Shown here one piece after another: positions 45,639 through 56,266 of a stretch of 64,000 bases of DNA. Both the position numbers and the translations under genes were made by a program. Under the pieces are notes generated by a model. The model was not told the origin of the DNA and ran no database searches. It saw nothing but the letters and a program-made list of their open reading frames with translations. Origin of the DNA: Coriobacteriia bacterium (GTDB taxonomy: Bacteria; Actinomycetota; Coriobacteriia; Anaerosomatales; JBAZZO01); NCBI GenBank assembly GCA_041658765.1, contig JBAZZO010000013.1:4742-68741 (forward strand), read 5' to 3'. Position 1 is the stretch's first letter. The number at the start of each line of letters is the position of its first letter.

Positions 45639-46793
45639 GTGGCTATCTCGATCGCCGTCGCCGCGGGCTGCACGCTGTGGCTCGGCATGGGCGCCTTCGG
45701 TATCTCTCACCTGCTGCAGCTGCGCTCTCTCGCTCGTGCGGTCCCGGAAGAACCATCGCGCTGGCCACGTGTCTCGGTGATCGTCGCGGCCCGCGACGAG
45801 GCGACCGACTGCGAGGCGGCGCTCCGGTCGCGTCTGGCGGACGACTACCCCGACCTCGAGGTCGTCTTCGTCGACGACCGCTCCACCGACGGCACGGGCG
45901 AGATCGCCGCGCGCGTCGCGGCCGAGGATCCGCGGGTGCGTGTCGTGCGTGTCGAGACGCTGCCGGCGGGATGGCTCGGAAAGGTCAACGCCCTCGCGCA
46001 TGGCGTCGCCGTGGCCGACGGCGAGTGGTTCCTGTTCTCCGACGCCGACGTCTACGTGGCCAGCGGCGGCCTCCGGCGCGCGATCGCGCACGCGGAGGCG
46101 GACGGTCTCGACATGCTCGCGCTGGTTCCCGAGTACGCGTCGAAGGACCTGCTGGTGAACGTGGTGTGGACTGTGTTCTTGCGTGTGATGATGCTCGTGC
46201 TCAGCCCGAGAGCGATCCGCGACCCGCGCAGGAAGACCTCGCTCGGCTCGGGCGCCTTCAACCTCGTGCGGCGCAGCGCGTTCGAGCGGACTCCCGGCTT
46301 CGAGTGGCTGCGCCTCGAGACCGCCGACGACATGGCCCTCGCGATGATGGTCAAGGGCGCGGGCGGACGACTCGAGACGATGGACGGGCGAGGCATCGCG
46401 CGGGTCGAGATCTACCGCAGCGCTGCGGAGTTCTTCCGGGGGATCGAGAAGAACGGCGGCACGACCGCCGCCCATCCATGGCGTTTCACCTTCGGCATGG
46501 CCGTCTTGCTCGCCGTGGAGTACTCGCCGTTCCTCGCGCTCGCGATCGGCCCGGCCTGGATGCGTGCGCTCGGCGCTGTCGCGCTCGTGGTCGCGACCGT
46601 GACCGACGTGCTCGCTCTGCGCATCAACACCGGCCGCATCGCGCCGGCGCTGATGTGGCCGCTCGGGACGCTGCTCTTCGTCGCCGGGACCCTTCGCGCC
46701 ACCTGGCTTGTCCACAGGCGCGGCGGCGTTCTCTGGCGCGGGACGTTCTACCCGCTCGCCGAGATCCACTCGCAGCGACGCTTCCGGTTCTGA
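45639..46793 (+). CDS. Family 2 glycosyltransferase, membrane-bound
   Basis: [10 protein letters not shown]...[12 protein letters not shown]...LFSDADV (DxD), with C-terminal TM helices. GTG 45639 with a purine-rich SD. Confidence 0.75.
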
Positions 46794-46801
46794 GTACCCG
46801 C

Positions 46802-48934
46802 CTAGTGCGCCGCGGTGGCGGCGAGAGCGTTCGGGTCGTCGTGTGCCGTGTCGGAGTACCCGGCGTGACAACCGCGCTGCGCGCTCGTCCCGCCGCAGCT
46901 GGTGAGCCACCGGCCGAAGATGTTCCCGGTGCGCGCGTGACACCCGGCCGTCATGCACCCCGTCTCCACGTGCACCCTGCTCAGGTCCGTCGTCGTGTGG
47001 CAGGTGCGACCGTCACCGCAGTACCCGGGCTGGGCGACGCCGCTCGGCGCGCGCTCGACGCCGACGTGCGCGGCGTCCCTTCCCCTGTGGTAGCCGGTCG
47101 AGCCGTGGCAGGCCGCGCACGCGGACCGGGAGTCGCGGGCGGTCCATCCGCTCCTCACGCGCGACGCGGTCGTGGAGCTGTGGCTGTGACAGCGCACGCA
47201 GAGCGTGCCGGAACCGCGGGCGATCCTCGAGTTCGCGCGGGCGTGCTCGAGACCGAGCACCATGCTGTGGCACGAGCCGCACGTCATGCCCAGTGTGGTG
47301 GCGGGGTCGACGTAGACCGCGTCCCGCTGCGCGTCTCCCGCGATGTGGGAGTCGTCGCGACCATCGAAACGTCCGAACCTACCGTCATGCACGGACGTCC
47401 GCGGGTCGTACTGCCTGCCGCGAGAGTGACAGGCGCGCCCAGAGCCGCAGGTCTTGTCCGACGGGTCGTAGGCTCGGTTGTCGCCCGCCCTGTGGCGGTC
47501 GTGGCAGCGCATGCAGTCACGGTGGAGGTACGATCCCGCGCCGACCCGCGAGAGATCCCCGGTCGGATGACAGCCCGCGCCCGTCGAGGCGCACCCCGTG
47601 CTGCGCGAGGCGTGGGAACCCATGGCGGCGTGCGCCGCGGAGAGACCCTTGCGGCCGTGGCAAGCCTCGCACGCGTCGCGCGTGTCGCGTGCCGACCAGT
47701 CGTTCGCGATCGCGGCCGCCGAGGCGGGGTTGTTGTGGCAGTTCCGGCAGTTGTCGCCTGGGACCTTCGAGCGCCTCGAAGTCCGCAGCGCGTGTTCGTC
47801 GGTGAGGCTCGTGCCGTTCGGAGACATCAGATGGCACGATCCGCACGAGATGCCCCGGAAGGTGTAGGACGCCGCGCGGCGCGACTTCGGCGCGTGCAGC
47901 GAGCGGTCCTTCTTGTGTGTATACGACGTGTTGAGGTAGCTGCGATGGCAAGGCGCGCCCACGGTCCCGCCGCAAGCGGTCACCGTCGGCTCCATCGCCT
48001 GCACCTTGAGGACGTGGCAGCCGGGCTCGCCCTTCTTCGCCGAACCCGAACACTTCGCGGGCTTGGCGGGATGAAGAGCGTGGACGTCGTTCGCGACATG
48101 GCAGCCGGACCCGGTACGTCCGCATCCGAGTTCTCCCGAGGCCACGACCGTTCCCGCCACCGATGCCGAGTGCATCGGCGACGAGGCACCCTCCCTGTGG
48201 CAGTCCTCGCAACGGCGCTTCTTCCAGTCGGAGAGCACCTGCGTCAGACCGAACGATCGCGTGTCGTTGTGGCACTCGCCACAACCGAGATCGCGCCCGT
48301 AGACGCTGCCGGCGACGGTCGGCACTCCCGAATGCGACGTCCTCAGGTCGCGGGAATGGCACTCGTCGCACGACGCCTTCGCGCTACCGCCCTTCACCGC
48401 GTGGACGGGCTGGGTCATGTCGGTCCCCATGGCGGTGTGCGTCGCCTCGCGATAGTGGCCCCGGGGGAACGGGTCGGATATGCGCACCCGGTCGACCGGC
48501 ACCTTCTCCGAACCGTCATGGCACGCCGGGCACTCGTCCTCCTTCAGGTAGTGACACGGGATGCAGCCGACGCCCTGGTAGTCGTGGCAGGGCACGCATT
48601 TCGCATCCTTGTGGTACGCGTTGAAGTCGCGGTAGGACGTCTCGTCCCCGTGGCATCCCTTGCCGGAGTTGGTGCAGCCGCTCTCTCGGACGGGATCGTA
48701 GTCGCTCGCCTTGGTGAAGGAGTGGACCTTGCCCGTAGGAGGGTTCCAGACGGCGGAGAAGACGACCGCCGCGACGATGACGAAGACAAGCCCGGCTCGA
48801 CGCAGCCTCGTGGCGCGCACTTCCTTCGCCAGACTCTCCGAACGGTTCGGTTCCCGCACCGGCGTACCCCCTCCGCGCGCGTGAGGCCGGACCTCACGCA
48901 CTCTCCCAACAGAATGATATCCCGAAAGCATCAT
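46802..48934 (-). CDS. Membrane-anchored multihaem cytochrome c (22 C-Xn-CH sites)
   Basis: One N-terminal TM ([17 protein letters not shown]). 13 CXXCH (CVPCH, CIPCH, CPACH, CDECH, CGECH, CEDCH, CGSCH, CRNCH, CEACH, CMRCH, CGSCH, CVRCH, CAACH) plus 9 CX4-10CH. All 44 Cys are in such pairs. Confidence 0.85.
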
Positions 48935-48959
48935 CTTGGGGGCATCACTCGGCCGTGAC

Positions 48960-48968
48960 TGCTATACT
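48960..48968 (+). promoter_or_regulatory. Extended -10-like element TGCTATACT in the divergent cytochrome intergenic region
   Basis: tgctatact lies 43 bp upstream of ATG 49012. Confidence 0.3.
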
Positions 48969-49011
48969 CGCCTCGGGGTACGAGTCTCGCTCGATCGGAC
49001 GGAGGGGACCG

Positions 49012-49926
49012 ATGAAGAACGTATCGATCCGTACGCGGATCCTCGGTGGCATCGTGCTCGTCAACCTGCTCGGCGCGCTCGTGGTGATGGTCTACCTCCA
49101 CCAGTCGTTCTCGGGCGGCCTCGACGTCGCGTCGAAGAAATCGATGAGCGTGTCCTTGAGCGTGTGGAACGACGTCACATCGCACACGGGCAAGCCTATC
49201 GACTTCGCGAGCCTGTACAAGGACGGCGGATCCTACCTCGAGCGCATGAAGCAGGTGACCGGCTCCGAATACGGCCTGCTCCTCGACAAGGCGGCGACCG
49301 ACGCCCAGTCGTACGAGAAGCTCCGCTCGGCTGCGAACCTGCCCAACGACTGGGACGAGCGCGAGAACAGCGTCCTGTCCGCCGTGACCGATCGCGGCCT
49401 CGCCGACCGGATGACCATCGGCGTCGACTCGGGCTCCATACCCGAGATCGGGAAGATGATCGGCATCGAGAACGGCGCCTGCTCGAAGACGTGCCACGCC
49501 GGCGTCAAGGGCAAGGGCGACTTCTGGGGCGTCTCGTGGAGCGACGACTCGCGCAGCCGCGCGCATGCGGTCTTCCCGGTCGCGGACGCGGCGGGGAAGC
49601 CCCTCGGCCTCGTCTACTCGATCGAGGACATCTCGGCCCAGGCGGACGCCGACAAGGGATCACTCTATCGCACGTTCTTCATGATCATCACCACGCTCTT
49701 GATCGCCACGGCGGTCATCGGCTACATGCTCGACGCCCTCGTCTTCAAGCGTCTCAACCACATGATCATGAGCATGGAGGACCTCTCCATCCGCGTCGCG
49801 GGCGGTGACTTCGGCGCCCACTTCGAGACCGACGGCACCACCGACGAGATCGGAAGGTTCCAGCAGTTCTTCGCGAAGTTCCTGGACCTGATGTCGTCGA
49901 CGCTCGACGCGCTGCTCAAGAAGTAG
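49012..49926 (+). CDS. Two-TM sensor-like protein: extracytoplasmic haem-c (CXXCH) domain + HAMP, no output domain
   Basis: TM1 ILGGIVLVNLLGALVVMVYL. Outer domain with NLPNDWDERENSVL...GACSKTCHAG (resembles the Tll0287/DUF3365 haem-c sensor). TM2 FFMIITTLLIATAVIGYML. HAMP FKRLNHMIMSMEDLS...TDEIGRFQQFF. GGAGGGG SD. Confidence 0.65.
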   Translation: MKNVSIRTRILGGIVLVNLLGALVVMVYLHQSFSGGLDVASKKSMSVSLSVWNDVTSHTGKPIDFASLYKDGGSYLERMKQVTGSEYGLLLDKAATDAQSYEKLRSAANLPNDWDERENSVLSAVTDRGLADRMTIGVDSGSIPEIGKMIGIENGACSKTCHAGVKGKGDFWGVSWSDDSRSRAHAVFPVADAAGKPLGLVYSIEDISAQADADKGSLYRTFFMIITTLLIATAVIGYMLDALVFKRLNHMIMSMEDLSIRVAGGDFGAHFETDGTTDEIGRFQQFFAKFLDLMSSTLDALLKK

Positions 49927-49951: not shown

Positions 49952-52381
49952 ATGACAAGGACCAAAGGGGTCGCGCTAGCCGTTGCGGCGGCGGCGCTCG
50001 TCCTGGCACTGCCCGCGCTGGCCGACGGCGTACCGGTGACCTACAACGCCTACGGCCGCGCATTCGTCGGGCGGGGCTGCTCCGACCAATCGGGCGGGAC
50101 CGGCCTGGGCTGCCATTCGACGGGCCGCGACGGCGCGAGCATCGTCAACAGCGACACCCCGCACCACAAGATGGTGCAGGACGTCCGCGCGCATCCTTCG
50201 GCCCTCCTCCCCGCGGCGTCCGCATCGGGAATGTGGCCGACGCCGACGTTCGGGACGGGCCTGCGGGTCTTCCCCTCCAACATCGCCTACATCATCGGCG
50301 GCTCGAACCTCGGCAAGGAGTACGTGCTCATCCCGGGAAGCGCCATCACGGCGGGCTACGGACCCACGAGCGTGCCGTTCCCCTCTGGCGCGCCCGCCGA
50401 CGACCTGCCCCTCCTCAACGGCTGCAACGGCGCGTACGAGAACGGCGCATGGACGTGGGCGGCCGAGGGTGTCGTCGGCGTCAGCGCGTATTTCCAGCGC
50501 TGCGGAGGCTGCCACAATCTCGGCGTCACAAGAGCGGCGAACGCCACGTACACGCTCGGCGACGGGGTGGCCACGATGGGCCGTTCGACGCCGACGACGG
50601 TCGCCGCGCTGAGCATCCTCTGCGAGGTCTGCCACGGCACGGGCCGCGAGGGCGGGCGCTGCGGCGTCGAGGTCGCCGCGTGGACGACGGCGGGCCCGCG
50701 GCCGATCCTCTCGTCTCGGGTCTGCGGCCAGTGTCACGTGACCGGCACGGCGCGCGAGACCAACTACGCCGGGAGCGGCAAGTTCTCGAACCCCAACGGC
50801 TACACCGTCGACCAGACGCTGACCGCCTACTTCGACGTCGCGAGCACGGTGCCGAGCGAGGGCGGCTTCGTCGCGGGGACCGGGAGCAGCGCCAGCAAGT
50901 TCTACCCGAATGGCGCCAACCAGACGATGCGCCACAGCTACTACAACGAGTGGCTGAAGACGGGGCACGCCAAGACACTCACGAGCCCGGGGAACAACGT
51001 GCTGAATGCCGCCCGGGGCCGCGTGAAGTGCCTGCGTTGCCACACCGGCGAGGGCTTCCTCGACTACATCGGCGCGAGCATCGTGCCCACACAGTTCGAC
51101 GTGACGTTGACCACCTTGCCCGTCAGCGGGCGCTGGACGACCAACGCGATGTACGCACAGGAGTGCGTGATCTGTCATGTCTCCCACGACTCCAGGTCGG
51201 GACTCGGTAGAAGGACCAACCAGCGGACCGGTAGGCGCGTCTCCTGCGGGGACTGCCACAACTGGCAGTACGAGGTGCTCGAGACGACGATAACCTCCAA
51301 CTACGACCTGCCGATCTCGAGCTACCGTTCGGGCAGCGTGCGCGTGAGCCACCCGAACCGCGAGATGCTCGCCGGCCGCGGCCTTCCCGAGGTCACGCTG
51401 GGCGAGGAGTTCATGCCCGGGGCCAGGTGCTCCGGATGCCACATGCCCGACACCGCCCGCAACGCGCAGCGCCCGAGCCACCGGTTCCTGCCGATGGAGC
51501 CGGGCGACGCCGAACGTTGGCAGGTGAAGGAAGAGGGCGACTCCTGCACGCCTTGCCATCCCAGCTTGAGTCGCGAGAGCCTGCAGGAGAGCATCGAGGA
51601 GTGGAAGGACACCTTCGCGGCCGGCGATCGGACCGCGTCCGCCGCCATCGACGCCGGGTACCTGCGTGGCTTCGCGACGTCGTCGGCGACGAACTGGATG
51701 CTCTACAAGAAGGCCTATCTCATCCGCTCGTATCTCCGCAACGACGGCAGCTCCGGCGTCCACAATCCACCGTACGCGGCGGCCGGGTGGGCGAAGGCCG
51801 CGTACATGGCGAAGGCCATCGGGGGTTCGGTCTCCATCGCGGACGCGGGCGGCGGCACCTACATCTGGGGGACCGTCTCGTTCGGCGACGGCACGGCCGT
51901 CCGCGAGCAGGTCGTATCCGTCGAGGCGAAGCCCTACGGCGCCACGGGCTGGGCCACTCTCTCGAGCACGAAGACCGACTCGGCGGGCCGCTATTCCGTG
52001 AACATCGCCCCGACCGTGAACACGCGCTACCGCGTCGTATGGCGCGTCACGTCGACGGAGCGGATCTCCAGCTCCGACCGTCTCGTCAGCGTCCGGGCCC
52101 GCACGAGCCTCGTCGCCACGCCCTTCATCGTCCCGTTCGGACGGGCGTTCACGCTCACCGGGAGAGTCACCCCCGCGCAGGCCGGCAGCGTGGTCATCCA
52201 GTACCGCCCCAGCACATCATCCGTGTGGCGCACGCTCACCCGGCGGACGCTCTCCGGGACGGGCACCTTCGCGTATCGCCTGACACGCGCCCGCGGCGCA
52301 TGGTGGTTCCGCGCGACCTGGGCGGGCAACGCCCGGTATGCCGGTTCGACGTCCGCCCCCGTGATCGTCTTCGTCCACTGA
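49952..52381 (+). CDS. Secreted multihaem cytochrome c (8 CXXCH + 1 CX10CH) fused to the shared C-terminal surface module
   Basis: Signal peptide VALAVAAAALVLALPALADG. CGGCH, CEVCH, CGQCH, CLRCH, CVICH, CGDCH, CSGCH, CTPCH plus CSDQSGGTGLGCH. NrfA-superfamily-like helix DGSSGVHNPPY. Two beta-sandwich domains at the C-terminus. Confidence 0.85.
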   Translation: MTRTKGVALAVAAAALVLALPALADGVPVTYNAYGRAFVGRGCSDQSGGTGLGCHSTGRDGASIVNSDTPHHKMVQDVRAHPSALLPAASASGMWPTPTFGTGLRVFPSNIAYIIGGSNLGKEYVLIPGSAITAGYGPTSVPFPSGAPADDLPLLNGCNGAYENGAWTWAAEGVVGVSAYFQRCGGCHNLGVTRAANATYTLGDGVATMGRSTPTTVAALSILCEVCHGTGREGGRCGVEVAAWTTAGPRPILSSRVCGQCHVTGTARETNYAGSGKFSNPNGYTVDQTLTAYFDVASTVPSEGGFVAGTGSSASKFYPNGANQTMRHSYYNEWLKTGHAKTLTSPGNNVLNAARGRVKCLRCHTGEGFLDYIGASIVPTQFDVTLTTLPVSGRWTTNAMYAQECVICHVSHDSRSGLGRRTNQRTGRRVSCGDCHNWQYEVLETTITSNYDLPISSYRSGSVRVSHPNREMLAGRGLPEVTLGEEFMPGARCSGCHMPDTARNAQRPSHRFLPMEPGDAERWQVKEEGDSCTPCHPSLSRESLQESIEEWKDTFAAGDRTASAAIDAGYLRGFATSSATNWMLYKKAYLIRSYLRNDGSSGVHNPPYAAAGWAKAAYMAKAIGGSVSIADAGGGTYIWGTVSFGDGTAVREQVVSVEAKPYGATGWATLSSTKTDSAGRYSVNIAPTVNTRYRVVWRVTSTERISSSDRLVSVRARTSLVATPFIVPFGRAFTLTGRVTPAQAGSVVIQYRPSTSSVWRTLTRRTLSGTGTFAYRLTRARGAWWFRATWAGNARYAGSTSAPVIVFVH

Positions 52382-52386
52382 CCGGC

Positions 52387-53346
52387 ATGCCAGGACGCCG
52401 GCTCGGCACCGACCCGCGGCTCAAGCGCTACGACCGCCTCGAGGACATGATCGGCGACACGGCGAACCCGACGCCGATCGTCGCGTTGCGCCGGATGGCG
52501 CCTCCCGGAGTCGCACTCTACGTGAAGCTCGAATGGGTGAACCCGTTCGGCTCGATCAAGGACCGCGCGGCGAAGTGGATGCTGACCGGGCTCGAGGCGC
52601 GCGGCGAGCTCGGCGACCGCACCATCGTCGAGGCGACCTCGGGCAACACGGGCATCGCGCTCGCCGCGATGGCGGCGCTGATGGGCAAGCGCATCGTGAC
52701 GACGGTCCCCCGCGAACTCTCCGACGAGAAGGACGCGCTCCTTCGCATGTTCGGGGCTAGCGTCGTCCGCACCCCCGCGGACGCCCCCGCCGGCGAGCAC
52801 CCGATGGACACCGCGTTCGCGATGGCCGAGGCGATGGCTCGCGACGCGGACGCGTACGTGATGCCGAACCAGTACGACAATGCCGACAACGTTCGCGCCC
52901 ACTACGAGACCACGGGCCCGGAGATCTGGGAGCAGGCCGAGGGCACGGTGCGCTACTTCTTCGCCGGCTTCGGGACATGCGGCACGCTCGTCGGCGCCGG
53001 ACGCTACCTCAAGGAGCGCGACCCCGACGTGCGCGTCATCGGCATCGAGCCGGTTCCCGGCCACCACATCTCGGGACTGAAGAACCTCACCGAGACGAGC
53101 GTCCCGGGCATCCTCGACCGATCGGTCCTCGATGAGGTCGTCTCCGTCGACGACGAGATGACCAACGAGACGATGGTGCGCCTCTATCGCGAGGAGGCGC
53201 TCGCCGTCGGTCCGTCCGCCGCGGCGATACTCGCGGGCGCGCTGCGCTACCTCGAAGGCCGCGAAGGCGTCGCCGTCGCGATCGCCCCCGACAGCGGGCA
53301 GAAGGCGGCGAGCTACCTCGCCGACGTCATGCGGGACGAGGCGTAG
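52387..53346 (+). CDS. Cysteine synthase family PLP enzyme (CysM/CysK-like)
   Basis: YVKLEWVNPFGSIKDRAA (PLP Lys), EATSGNTGIALA, FAGFGTCGTLVGAG. 319 aa from ATG 52387. Confidence 0.85.
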   Translation: MPGRRLGTDPRLKRYDRLEDMIGDTANPTPIVALRRMAPPGVALYVKLEWVNPFGSIKDRAAKWMLTGLEARGELGDRTIVEATSGNTGIALAAMAALMGKRIVTTVPRELSDEKDALLRMFGASVVRTPADAPAGEHPMDTAFAMAEAMARDADAYVMPNQYDNADNVRAHYETTGPEIWEQAEGTVRYFFAGFGTCGTLVGAGRYLKERDPDVRVIGIEPVPGHHISGLKNLTETSVPGILDRSVLDEVVSVDDEMTNETMVRLYREEALAVGPSAAAILAGALRYLEGREGVAVAIAPDSGQKAASYLADVMRDEA

Positions 53347-53349
53347 ACC

Positions 53350-53658
53350 GTGCCCGCGGGAGAGCGTGCGACCGTCCACATGTTCGGCGTGCTCCACTCG
53401 CTGCGGGTGGAGCGGGGCCTTCCCTCGAGCGTGGAAATGGACGTCCCGCCCGAGGGTGTGCCGGCGCGCGCGATCGCGCTCGATCTCGATCTGCCTCTTG
53501 AAAGCATCGAGGCGGTCTTCGTGAACCACACCGCGTTCGGACTCGACCACGTCGTCCTGCCGGGCGACCGGGTCGCGTTCGCGCCGTTCGGCACTCCCGG
53601 CCCGCATCGGTTCTGCCTCGGCCTCTTCGACGCCGGCCGTGAGGGCCGCGACGATTAA
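53350..53658 (+). CDS. MoaD/ThiS-like ubiquitin-fold protein lacking a C-terminal GG
   Basis: ATVHMFGVLHSL...VFVNHTAFGLDHVVLPGDRVAFAPFGTPGP follows the MoaD/ThiS layout, but ends FGTPGP plus a further extension instead of GG. It starts 3 nt after the cysM-like stop. Confidence 0.4.
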   Translation: MPAGERATVHMFGVLHSLRVERGLPSSVEMDVPPEGVPARAIALDLDLPLESIEAVFVNHTAFGLDHVVLPGDRVAFAPFGTPGPHRFCLGLFDAGREGRDD

Positions 53659-54242
53659 GCTTCGTCGATGCCGAACAGCAGGCGGATCGCCATGTGCGCC
53701 TCATGCGCGGCGGCCGTCATGACCCGCGAGGCGATCAGCGGCGAGCCGAGACTCGCGTCGCTCGTCAGGTCGCCCACCACGTAGAGACGCTGCGCCATGC
53801 GGTCCGTGACGATGTCGTTCGCCGAACCGGTCCCGGCGAGCCCCGACGCAGTGATGAGAGGCGTGCCGGGCGCCACGCGCATGCATGCGTTGACGATCAT
53901 CGCCTTCGTCGCCGCCGCATCCACCGCCTCGATGATGACGTCGGCGCCGCGCACGAGGCGCGGTAGGTTCTCCTCGGTGATACGCTCGGTCACGAGCGTA
54001 AGACGCACTTCGGGGTCGATGCGCGAAAGGGTCTCGGCGAGCGCCTCGGTCTTGAGCCGGCCGATCTGGTCGCGGAAGTAGAGCTGGCGGTCGAGATTCG
54101 ACTCCTCCACGCGATCGAAGTCGACGAGCGTGAGCGCGCGCACCCCGCCGCGGACGAGCATGGCGGCCGCGTTGCTGCCCAGCCCGCCGCAACCGAGGAC
54201 GACGACACGTGCCGCGCCGAGGCTTGCGCGCACGTCGCTCAT
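53655..54242 (-). CDS. ThiF/MoeB/HesA-family E1-like adenylyltransferase (short form)
   Basis: RVVVLGCGGLGSNAAAMLVRGGV...LVDFDRVEESNLDRQ is a Rossmann/ATP motif. 195 aa. Only the 3' part of the 569-aa track ORF is used. Confidence 0.8.
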   Translation of the reverse strand: MSDVRASLGAARVVVLGCGGLGSNAAAMLVRGGVRALTLVDFDRVEESNLDRQLYFRDQIGRLKTEALAETLSRIDPEVRLTLVTERITEENLPRLVRGADVIIEAVDAAATKAMIVNACMRVAPGTPLITASGLAGTGSANDIVTDRMAQRLYVVGDLTSDASLGSPLIASRVMTAAAHEAHMAIRLLFGIDEA

Positions 54243-54478
54243 CCCCCCGCCACCGGCGGGAAGACGGCGAGACGGTCGCCGTCGCGCAGGACCGTCGTCT
54301 CCTCCGCGTGCCGTCCGTTGACGAAGACCACCCGCGGCTCGTCCGGAAGCGCCAGAGACGCCGCCACGTCGGCGACGGTCGTACCCTCGGCGAGCTCGAA
54401 GGGGCGGGCGTGGCGTCCGCCCGCCCCGTCGGGCTGGTAACGCGCGAGTGTCGCGAAGAGCGCTATGTCGACCTTCAT
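54239..54478 (-). CDS. MoaD/ThiS-family sulfur carrier (C-terminal GG)
   Basis: 79 aa ending ...DGDRLAVFPPVAGG. The stop overlaps the ThiF-like start (ATGA). Confidence 0.8.
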   Translation of the reverse strand: MKVDIALFATLARYQPDGAGGRHARPFELAEGTTVADVAASLALPDEPRVVFVNGRHAEETTVLRDGDRLAVFPPVAGG

Positions 54479-54493
54479 TCCGCTCCCGCTCTA

Positions 54494-56266
54494 TCAGAGA
54501 CCCATCGACGCGGCGGTCTCGGGGACGAAATCGAAGACGGTGTCGAGCTCGGCGTCCGGGACCTCGAAGACGACATCGTGCGGCGGCAGGGGGTCGGTGA
54601 GGAAGAAGCTCGGCAGACGGTCGTCGGCCGCGGTGAACCCCGCATTCGCGTTGAAGAACCGCTCGTACGTGAGGACCTCCTTGCCGAGCGTCATCAGTTC
54701 GTCCGCGCCCCACACCTCGCCGAGGTGCGCCGAGACCATCTCGTGGATGGCCGCGAACGCCTCGGGGATGTCGAGGACGGGGAAGGCGACGAAGATGCAC
54801 AATCCCAGCGCGTCGAGCATCGCGGTGGCGATCTGCAGGTTCCTGGAGAGCTCGATCTGCCCGGCAGGCTTGAGAGGATCGACGAAGCCGCCGACCTTGA
54901 GGATGTTCGCCGTGACCGCATAACCCGCCGTGTGGTCCGCACCCATCGTAGAGGTCGCGTACGTCACGCCGATCCCCATGACCGAGCGCGGATCGTACGC
55001 GGGCAGCGCCTGATGCTTGACGACCGGGATGCGCGCGACGCCGAACGCCTTGCCGGTCGCCTCCGCGCCGTGGCCGAGTATCGGCCCGGGCTTCCCGCCG
55101 CCGAAGACGCTGCGCAGCGCCGCGAGCGCGGCCTTGCCGTCGCCGAACGGGATCGCCCCGGAGTCCATGTAGACGGCCATCGTCGCGCCGGTCTCGATGG
55201 TGTCGAGACCGAGGTCGCCGCACAGCCGGTCGAGCTCGGCGATGTCGTCCAGGTCGGATATGCCGCAGTCTGCGCCGAACGACCAGACGGTCTCGTACTC
55301 CGGCCCCTTGGTCTTGTACTTGCCGTCCTTGTCGACCCAGTAGCGGGAGCATTGGATGACGCAACCGCTGTGGCAGCCGTGCTGGACGTCACCGCCGCGC
55401 TCGAGGATGATCTCGCGCTGCCGCTCGCCGGAGGTGGCCTCCGCGCCCTCGAACGTGCCGCTCGAGAAGTTGCGCGTCGGCAGGCCGCCGGCCTCGGACA
55501 GGATGTTGGTGAGCACGTTCGTGCCGTACATCGGGAGAGCGGTGCCGGAGACGGCGTGCTCCTTGAGCGCCGCGGCGAACCGTTTGACGGCCGCATTGAA
55601 CGCGTCCTTGTCGGCGTGAGCGAGGTTCGGCAGGCCCTTGTCGGACACGACGATCGCCTTGAGTCCCTTGCTCCCCATGACGGAGCCGAGACCCCCGCGG
55701 CCGGCGAAGCGGTTCGGGTAGCCCTTCATGTCGGAGACCGCGATGCCGGCGGCCTTCATCCCGGCCTCGCCCGCCGGGCCGATCGTGATGGTGGCGTAGC
55801 GGTCGTCGGCCGGGCGCTTCGCCTTGATGGCGTCGGCGACCTCGTAGTTGCCTTTCTCCGCCCATTCATCGACGCGCTCGAACCTCACCGAGCCGTCGGC
55901 TTCCATGATCATCATGTAGCGCGCGTTCGCGTCGGTGGGCTTGCCGCTGACCACTACCGCGGCGATCCCGAGACGACCCAGCGCATTGGCGGCCTGACCG
56001 CCCGAGTTCGACTCCTTGATGCCGCCCGTGAGCGGGCTCTTCGCCCCGAAGGAGAGCCGTCCGCCGTTGGGCGCGGTGGTGCCTCCGAACAGCCCGGGGG
56101 CGATCACGAGCACGTTCTCGGCGCCGAGCGGGTCGGCTTTCGGCGGCACTTTCTCCCAGACGAGCGCGCTCGTCAGAGCCCTGCCCCCATAGTGGGCCCA
56201 CTTCGCGGGGACCGGCTCCTTGACCGCGGTGGGGCCGGACATGTCCACGTACAGGATCTCTCTCAT
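54494..56266 (-). CDS. aor: Aldehyde:ferredoxin oxidoreductase family (tungstopterin enzyme)
   Basis: ILYVDMSG...YGGRALTSAL...SPLTGGIKESNSGG...GADHTAGY...ALGLCIF are aldehyde:ferredoxin oxidoreductase N- and C-domain signatures. 590 aa. Confidence 0.9.
   Translation of the reverse strand: MREILYVDMSGPTAVKEPVPAKWAHYGGRALTSALVWEKVPPKADPLGAENVLVIAPGLFGGTTAPNGGRLSFGAKSPLTGGIKESNSGGQAANALGRLGIAAVVVSGKPTDANARYMMIMEADGSVRFERVDEWAEKGNYEVADAIKAKRPADDRYATITIGPAGEAGMKAAGIAVSDMKGYPNRFAGRGGLGSVMGSKGLKAIVVSDKGLPNLAHADKDAFNAAVKRFAAALKEHAVSGTALPMYGTNVLTNILSEAGGLPTRNFSSGTFEGAEATSGERQREIILERGGDVQHGCHSGCVIQCSRYWVDKDGKYKTKGPEYETVWSFGADCGISDLDDIAELDRLCGDLGLDTIETGATMAVYMDSGAIPFGDGKAALAALRSVFGGGKPGPILGHGAEATGKAFGVARIPVVKHQALPAYDPRSVMGIGVTYATSTMGADHTAGYAVTANILKVGGFVDPLKPAGQIELSRNLQIATAMLDALGLCIFVAFPVLDIPEAFAAIHEMVSAHLGEVWGADELMTLGKEVLTYERFFNANAGFTAADDRLPSFFLTDPLPPHDVVFEVPDAELDTVFDFVPETAASMGL

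Follow-up and report, generated by a model that had tools for sequence, protein, structure and literature searches.

The stretch of DNA analysed here (the window) comprises 64,000 nucleotides (nt) from a Coriobacteriia bacterium (Actinomycetota; Anaerosomatales; GenBank assembly GCA_041658765.1, contig JBAZZO010000013.1, positions 4,742 to 68,741 of the forward strand). Positions below are those of the window unless a related locus is named. The gene in question is an open reading frame (ORF) on the minus strand at 46802–48934, which translates to a multihaem cytochrome c of 710 amino acids (aa) with 44 Cys and 49 His. Together with two neighbouring genes, encoding proteins of 323 aa and 809 aa, it makes up a three-gene set. 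The features of the 710-aa cytochrome are as follows; its predicted triple-haem modules are called M (canonical CXXCH motifs) or E (extended motifs).

46802..48934, minus strand: multihaem cytochrome c of 710 aa with 22 C-Xn-CH motifs (translation; Pfam Cytochrome_C7; identity to metagenome protein P0001)
48749..48838, minus strand: predicted N-terminal hydrophobic helix, residues 33–62 (helix in the AlphaFold2 (AF2) model; conserved WNPPT..VH after the hydrophobic stretch)
48485..48748, minus strand: N-terminal four-motif block, residues 63–150, with CTNSGKGCH (X6) and three CXXCH
48650..48676, minus strand: extended motif 1, CTNSGKGCH (X6), of fixed length (consensus GC[TV]NSGxGCH)
48185..48484, minus strand: M1, c7-like predicted triple-haem module with three CXXCH, residues 151–250 (Cytochrome_C7 match at residues 181–247; hhalign)
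47930..48184, minus strand: E1, extended-motif predicted triple-haem module, residues 251–335 (hhalign probability 97.1% for E1–E2 and 96.8% for E1–E3)
48098..48124, minus strand: CGRTGSGCH of E1
48014..48052, minus strand: X10 motif of E1
47945..47974, minus strand: X7 motif of E1
47645..47929, minus strand: M2, predicted triple-haem module with three CXXCH, residues 336–430 (hhalign probability 99.5% for M2–M3)
47399..47644, minus strand: E2, residues 431–512, with spacers X6, X2, and X5 (the middle motif is canonical CMRCH)
47567..47593, minus strand: CASTGAGCH of E2
47426..47449, minus strand: last motif of E2
47099..47398, minus strand: M3, predicted triple-haem module with three CXXCH, residues 513–612 (hhalign)
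46805..47098, minus strand: E3, residues 613–710 (motif and alignment evidence; predicted local distance difference test (pLDDT) of 81–92 in the AF2 model across residues 621–690)
46997..47020, minus strand: CGDGRTCH of E3
46937..46957, minus strand: CMTAGCH of E3
46865..46897, minus strand: X8 motif of E3

Consecutive pairing of the translated Cys places all 44 of them in C-Xn-CH pairs and yields 22 units, as stated in the original prediction. Thirteen are canonical CXXCH and nine are extended pairs, whose sequences and spacings (X6, X6, X10, X7, X6, X5, X5, X4, and X8) were reproduced. All 22 have His immediately after the second Cys, which is the form of an attachment site. The extended loops are indeed rich in Gly (37%, against 11% across the protein), and six of the nine end in G-CH. 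Chance origin of the 22 motifs is excluded. Residue shuffles (n = 20,000) contained 1.1 C-Xn-CH motifs on average and seven at most. When the 13 CXXCH were kept as blocks, the mean number of extended motifs was 0.27 and the maximum four, against nine observed.

Judged from its sequence, the 710-aa frame is a real gene. Its GC content at third codon positions (GC3) is 0.86, while that of the window is about 68% overall. A metagenome protein from the Joint Genome Institute (P0001) is 100% identical over 685 aa and starts at an internal GTG 25 codons later. Looking up the exact sequences of both proteins led to no contig on record. A 1,093-aa open frame on the plus strand (45677–48958), antisense to the cytochrome gene, looks like a high-GC shadow ORF and not a gene.

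From the N-terminus, the spacers are ordered X6 / X2 X2 X2 / X2 X2 X2 / X6 X10 X7 / X2 X2 X2 / X6 X2 X5 / X2 X2 X2 / X5 X4 X8. The extended motifs had been described as interleaved with CXXCH. They do alternate, as blocks; they are not singly interleaved and are grouped in triple-haem modules. The kinship of the modules was assessed by profile-profile comparison of sub-alignments with hhalign. The M modules are mutually related with probabilities of 97–99.5% (97.8% for M1–M2 and 97.4% for M1–M3), and the E modules at about 97%. Kinship between M and E modules is not significant apart from overlapping ends. The first part of the N-terminal four-motif block resembles E modules (91% for N0–E2). 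The sole Pfam match of the protein, Cytochrome_C7 (PF14522; 43.2 bits against a cut-off of 24.8, residues 181–247), concerns the CXXCH modules only, and M2 shows a weak PDB profile match to NrfB (E 9.7e-5). Based on these comparisons, the 710-aa protein is composed of two alternating kinds of predicted triple-haem modules, the c7-like M and the unannotated E. The hydrophobic helix at residues 33–62 is preceded by an Arg-rich sequence and looks like a signal-anchor placing the predicted haem domain outside the cytoplasm.

A protein search collected 117 proteins, about 50% identical, most of them 1,050–1,150 aa long. All those with a name come from uncultured Coriobacteriia or Actinomycetota. 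Scanning the genomes of species representatives for GC[TV]NSGxGCH turned up 60 loci, exclusively in metagenome-assembled genomes (MAGs) from the same group. Among the 6,680 Cys of the 117 proteins, 97.8% are in C-X1-17-CH pairs. The spacing X2 is counted 1950 times, followed by X4 (458), X6 (355), X8 (139), X10 (128), X5 (116), X7 (60), and X9 (48), and extended motifs represent about 40% of all motifs in the family. The residue before the second Cys is Gly in 64% of the extended motifs and in 8% of the canonical ones.

The proposed check, whether homologues conserve both Cys and the His of the extended motifs, was carried out on a MAFFT alignment (n = 116) and came out in favour of conservation. 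The extended sites keep Cys1, Cys2, and His in about 97–100% of the covered homologues, equal to the CXXCH sites. The background is much less conserved: across residues 60–700 the mean identity to the query residue is 48%, and just 19% of the positions reach 90% conservation. Among residue types, Cys (86%) and His (74%) stand well above all others. Three extended sites are fixed in both length and sequence (GCTNSGxGCH, CGxTGxGCH, and CSGSAxxGEPGCH). Extended motif 1 retains C, C, H, and X6 in 113 of 113 covered homologues, and the first two sites of E1 retain X6 in 115 and X10 in 108 of 116. At other sites the spacer drifts while Cys and His stay fixed: X5–8 at site 321 (the third site of E1), X4 or X6 at site 448, X5–10 at site 496, and mostly X7–10 at site 680.

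Canonical and extended motifs are also exchanged for each other. At site 474, the CMRCH column, 89 homologues have CXXCH and 25 have CX4CH. The middle motif of the E module is X10 in E1, CMRCH (X2) in E2, and CMTAGCH (X4) in E3, at positions aligned by hhalign with about 97% probability. The third case is in the 809-aa neighbour, which carries the X10 motif CSDQSGGTGLGCH as had been noted (nt 50078–50116); in seven homologues the aligned motif is CISCH, CLSCH, CLECH, or CAACH, and one homologue has CLEDCH. Because the motifs swap in three independent cases, the long loop can be considered as arising by insertion into, or as reverting to, an ordinary haem site. The X10 loop of the 809-aa cytochrome itself looks like a recent insertion in the source organism, seven homologues having plain CXXCH.

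In addition to the His of the motifs, the 710-aa protein has 27 His, and 22 of them are conserved (64–99%; 14 at 95% or above); the remaining five reach just 1–7%. Family-wide, the median number of non-motif His per motif is 1.3. In the alignment of 46 E modules, the invariant columns are H7, C30, C36, H37, H46, C51, C56, H57, C71, G72, G73, C80, and H81, and H14 is at least 90% conserved. Each E module thus has three attachment sites with their CH-His, plus another three His that are invariant (H7 and H46) or nearly so (H14). The His counts fit the predicted bis-His ligation of haem at every motif.

The nine C-X4-10-CH pairs are very probably c-type haem attachment sites, and this reading is well supported by the comparative evidence. 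The most likely haem load of the 710-aa protein is 22, with nine haems on stretched Gly-rich sites. The conservation pattern points to covalent haem at the extended sites and to bis-His ligation. At such a site, the two-residue spacer would be expanded into a Gly-rich bulge, while both thioether Cys and the proximal His would be unmoved. The three sites of the E module would typically be C-x4/6-CH, C-x2/4/10-CH, and CGG-x3-8-CH. The whole protein could be an electron wire of about 22 haems, largely bis-His ligated, with about 30 residues per haem, and the N-terminal helix would anchor this wire in the membrane of a monoderm Coriobacteriia-type bacterium.

The original prediction left two alternatives, a distinct haem-attachment motif class and a structural metal or disulfide element alternating with the haems. 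The former gains support from the conservation, the swaps, and one extra conserved His per motif; nothing specific has come to support the latter. In its explicit form, the latter would have the extended Cys pairs as disulfides, or as Zn or Fe clusters with Cys and His ligands, which stiffen the chain of a protein with only 13 haems. Gly-rich loops between Cys are known in disulfide knots and metal ribbons too, the E module shows no detectable similarity to solved cytochromes, and for a few single E-module sequences Pfam returned Cys-rich VWC-type domains as marginal, non-significant matches (E about 0.04). However, a disulfide would not need the His after the second Cys, which is invariant at the nine sites, and each extended site has a matching extra conserved His. 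The loop length is free at several extended sites, unlike metal-binding loops, and the extended columns carry canonical CXXCH in orthologues and paralogues. The non-motif His would be more than twice the need of a 13-haem protein. The metal or disulfide alternative is disfavoured because it leaves the invariant His, the drifting loops, and the CXXCH swaps unexplained, and it is considered highly improbable.

Stretched spacers have precedents. Cytochrome c3 of Desulfovibrio vulgaris has CGTAGCH and CKKSKCH (sequence identical to PDB 1a2i/2cth), which bind haems II and IV. The non-standard haem-binding spacings listed in a 2024 survey are CX3CH, CX4CH, CX11CH, CX15CH, and CX17CH (PMC11492766). 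The 710-aa protein resembles c3 (the tetrahaem, class III cytochrome of Desulfovibrio) and the triple-haem c7 (PF14522) in the very low ratio of residues to haems and the probable bis-His ligation. The mixture of CXXCH with stretched Gly-containing motifs is also shared with c3, whose CGTAGCH and CKKSKCH can be compared with CMTAGCH of the 710-aa protein. The differences are that the spacers of c3 end at X4, whereas the 710-aa family reaches X10 with 40% of its sites stretched, and that c3 is a small soluble protein, whereas a membrane-anchored chain of 22 haems is predicted here. Homology between c3 and the E module was considered and rejected; hhalign puts C-x4-GCH on CGTAGCH at an insignificant probability of 4.9%, and the likeness is a motif resemblance only.

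In the octahaem sulfite reductases MccA and SirA, a long spacer (CX15CH, CX11CH/CX17CH) still gives covalent haem, by System II in Wolinella (PMC10663686, PMC11492766). MccA differs in having one special motif at a catalytic site and its own synthase. The 710-aa protein has nine extended motifs (dozens in paralogues) of variable length, X4–10, in what seem to be plain electron-transfer modules, and MccA is not among the PDB profile matches of the 710-aa protein and the E module. The multi-domain c7-repeat nanowires of Geobacter (GSU1996 type) and the cell-surface multihaem cytochromes of Gram-positive Fe(III) reducers (OcwA of Thermincola, and Carboxydothermus) are similar in their tandem triple-haem modules and in that electrons are predicted to move off the membrane; here, alternate modules are of the unannotated extended-motif type. 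The match to the c7-type nanowire repeat TIGR04257 is weak (E 7e-4, 19.7 bits against a cut-off of 40), and the protein falls outside that family. PF09698/TIGR01904, the Geobacter CxxxxCH...CXXCH domain, gave no match in Pfam and NCBIfam at E up to 1 for the 710-aa protein and up to 10 for the E modules. What is already known is that spacers are stretchable (c3, MccA). The X5–X10 range, the prevalence in this lineage, the Gly-rich loop signature, and the unannotated triple-haem domain are new.

Several points weigh against haem attachment at the extended sites. A literature search for CX5CH to CX10CH found no characterised haem sites, which is weak evidence because the notation varies and subscription papers are outside its coverage. 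The E module has no sequence match in the PDB by profile search and no fold match by Foldseek to a solved cytochrome. His 698 and His 710 are the counterparts of H7 and H14 in a next module that is missing from the 710-aa copy, and the N-terminal four-motif block has just two obvious partner His. For these two reasons, the exact match of 22 motifs and 22 conserved His is partly fortuitous, two of the 22 belonging to a truncated module, and it was rejected as proof of ligation. The 64-kb window was negative in a scan for the CcsA-type WWD motif and contains no maturation gene. The known CX15CH needs a dedicated synthase, so standard System II might not serve the extended sites. Finally, the 710-aa copy, which lacks a C-terminal domain of about 370 aa, could be a decaying gene. 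The last two points correspond to further alternative explanations.

Genes for haem maturation are found at related loci. In seven of them a CcsA-like gene is situated within 10 kb, and all four that were examined show ResB and CcsA (Cytochrom_C_asm) adjoining paralogous multihaem cytochromes:

locus L038, 5731..7950: ResB and CcsA
locus L032, 16420..18401: ResB and CcsA
locus L041, 15878..18149: ResB and CcsA
locus L058, 15280..17613: ResB and CcsA

From the presence of ResB/CcsA beside the paralogues in related genomes, the Coriobacteriia-type lineage presumably uses System II, and this would be the maturation route of the 710-aa protein. Haem would then be attached outside the membrane by the ResB/CcsA synthase, which would have to tolerate, or be specialised for, variable Cys–Cys spacing. 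CXXCK and CX15CH are reported to require dedicated synthases (PMC10663686, PMC3601427). It can be speculated that the extended motifs bind haem solely via a dedicated, lineage-specific System II paralogue, comparable with CcsA1 for CX15CH in Wolinella, and that the ResB/CcsA pair beside the giant paralogues described below is that specialised enzyme. This would suit the immediate adjacency of ResB/CcsA genes to family paralogues in at least four genomes. However, the loci seen have one CcsA per genome, and the seven CcsA sequences (30–58% identical) could all belong to a single orthologous group. The same polypeptides alternate between extended and canonical motifs, the former at 40% of motifs, and a single tolerant enzyme would explain this more simply. 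In other organisms, CX3CH and CX4CH are not known to require a special synthase, which also counts against a dedicated one. A synthase restricted to the extended motifs is thus conceivable but rather doubtful.

The 710-aa protein ends at a conserved His (46802–46835), while about 110 homologues continue for about 370 aa. The missing part holds one more E module and a domain of six CXXCH with a conserved HAWKRPRLL. A convergent gene for a family-2 glycosyltransferase ends 8 nt from the cytochrome stop (46793). No related locus has the three genes in this order and orientation. The 710-aa copy may be a shortened functional form or the casualty of a recent rearrangement. If the gene were a nonfunctional remnant of a cytochrome of about 1,090 aa, its motif pattern would be inherited history. 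Such an origin would agree with the length of nearly all homologues (1,050–1,150 aa), with the rearrangement of the three-gene order relative to more than 30 related loci, and with tblastn of the window, which found no remnant of the missing C-terminal domain. Against it, the frame is intact over 710 codons with a coding-type GC3, no motif and no conserved His has been lost (22 of each), and the protein ends cleanly after a complete module. A nonfunctional remnant is distinctly unlikely, and it would touch the 710-aa copy only, leaving the motif identity of the family unaffected.

The E module is rare. It accommodates three predicted haems in about 80 residues, nearly without helices, and its AF2 model has a pLDDT of 79.6. 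Pfam gave no match for the 46 E modules at E up to 10, and they are not placed in PF14522. A word-indexed protein search with the E-module profile had no matches, and an exhaustive search among 1.84 billion proteins found 33 cluster representatives, of which the labelled ones are all from Actinobacteria/Actinomycetota.

Giant paralogues of about 3,000–3,500 aa are present in related Coriobacteriia MAGs, with 63–94 C-Xn-CH motifs, of which mostly 30–40% are extended:

locus L039, 5807..15994: giant paralogue
locus L032, 7019..16225: giant paralogue
locus L045: giant paralogue
locus L049: giant paralogue (just 7 of 63 motifs extended)
locus L054: giant paralogue

Each of them has about two Cys per motif. 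The largest paralogue reaches about 3,400 aa and has 94 motifs, 39 of them extended. The giants match Cytochrome_C7 and the profile of MtrC domain II/IV; for the latter (cut-off 30 bits), the paralogue of L032 is above the cut-off at 40.5 and that of L039 below it at 27.7. It is probable that this lineage uses the Gly-rich C-X4-10-CH as a routine haem c site (about 40% of sites, dozens per giant protein) and has built from it the E domain, without a solved or annotated relative.

These motifs affect how haems are counted. Genome surveys count haems by CXXCH or by C-Xn-CH with n = 2–4 or 2–5 (PMC7399161, PMC12545173, PMC5815863). Such patterns would miss up to about 40% of the sites of this family, giving 13 for 22 in the 710-aa protein and 55 for 94 in a giant paralogue. 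For the subsurface Actinomycetota implicated in reducing iron and electrodes, the undercount would alter how long the wires, and how large their charge capacity, are estimated to be. If haem is bound at X5–X10, the list of accepted motifs (X1–4, X11, X15, and X17) would extend across the gap between them, and the family would be a test of substrate recognition by cytochrome c synthases. Under the current CcsBA model, with two Cys pockets and His ligation, any spacer should be tolerated, yet a separate enzyme is required for CX15CH. Either the pockets of the System II synthase would put hardly any limit on spacer length, or the lineage would have a new, specialised paralogue. The E module is also a candidate for a minimal building block of engineered haem wires.

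The other two members of the three-gene set are as follows.

48955..49926, plus strand: conserved 323-aa partner with two hydrophobic segments, one CSKTCH (nt 49480–49497), and a HAMP-like C-terminus
49952..52381, plus strand: 809-aa cytochrome with eight CXXCH and CSDQSGGTGLGCH (X10, nt 50078–50116)

In more than 30 related loci, the gene that immediately follows the family cytochrome encodes a homologue of the 323-aa protein; in the window, the 323-aa gene is divergently oriented. The 323-aa protein shows weak matches of the WalK or methyl-accepting chemotaxis protein type over residues 202–317, without an output domain, and might be a haem-based sensor or a membrane adaptor. The 809-aa cytochrome, with nine motifs in total, has matches to MtrC domain II/IV, NrfA-like matches, and immunoglobulin-like C-terminal domains, and its homologue is adjacent in about ten related loci.

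Cultured relatives (Anaerosomatales) reduce Fe(III) and have 17–18 multihaem cytochromes, clustered with biogenesis genes (PMC9686372), and on an anode, a genome from the Coriobacteriales that encodes 37 such cytochromes was found enriched (PMC7399161). From its context and relatives, the 710-aa cytochrome most likely serves as an electron conduit from the membrane to the surface. Together with the 323-aa monohaem membrane protein and the 809-aa cytochrome, it would pass respiratory electrons from the membrane via the cell wall to an extracellular acceptor.

The remainder of the window is housekeeping (Kdp, purine synthesis, MscL, the family-2 glycosyltransferase, aldehyde:ferredoxin oxidoreductase, and ThiF). 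A cluster beside the cytochrome genes (52399–56266) encodes a pyridoxal phosphate-dependent (cysteine synthase-like) enzyme, a 102-aa protein, a ThiF-family enzyme, and the aldehyde:ferredoxin oxidoreductase, and may be a set related to a sulfur carrier or to molybdopterin.

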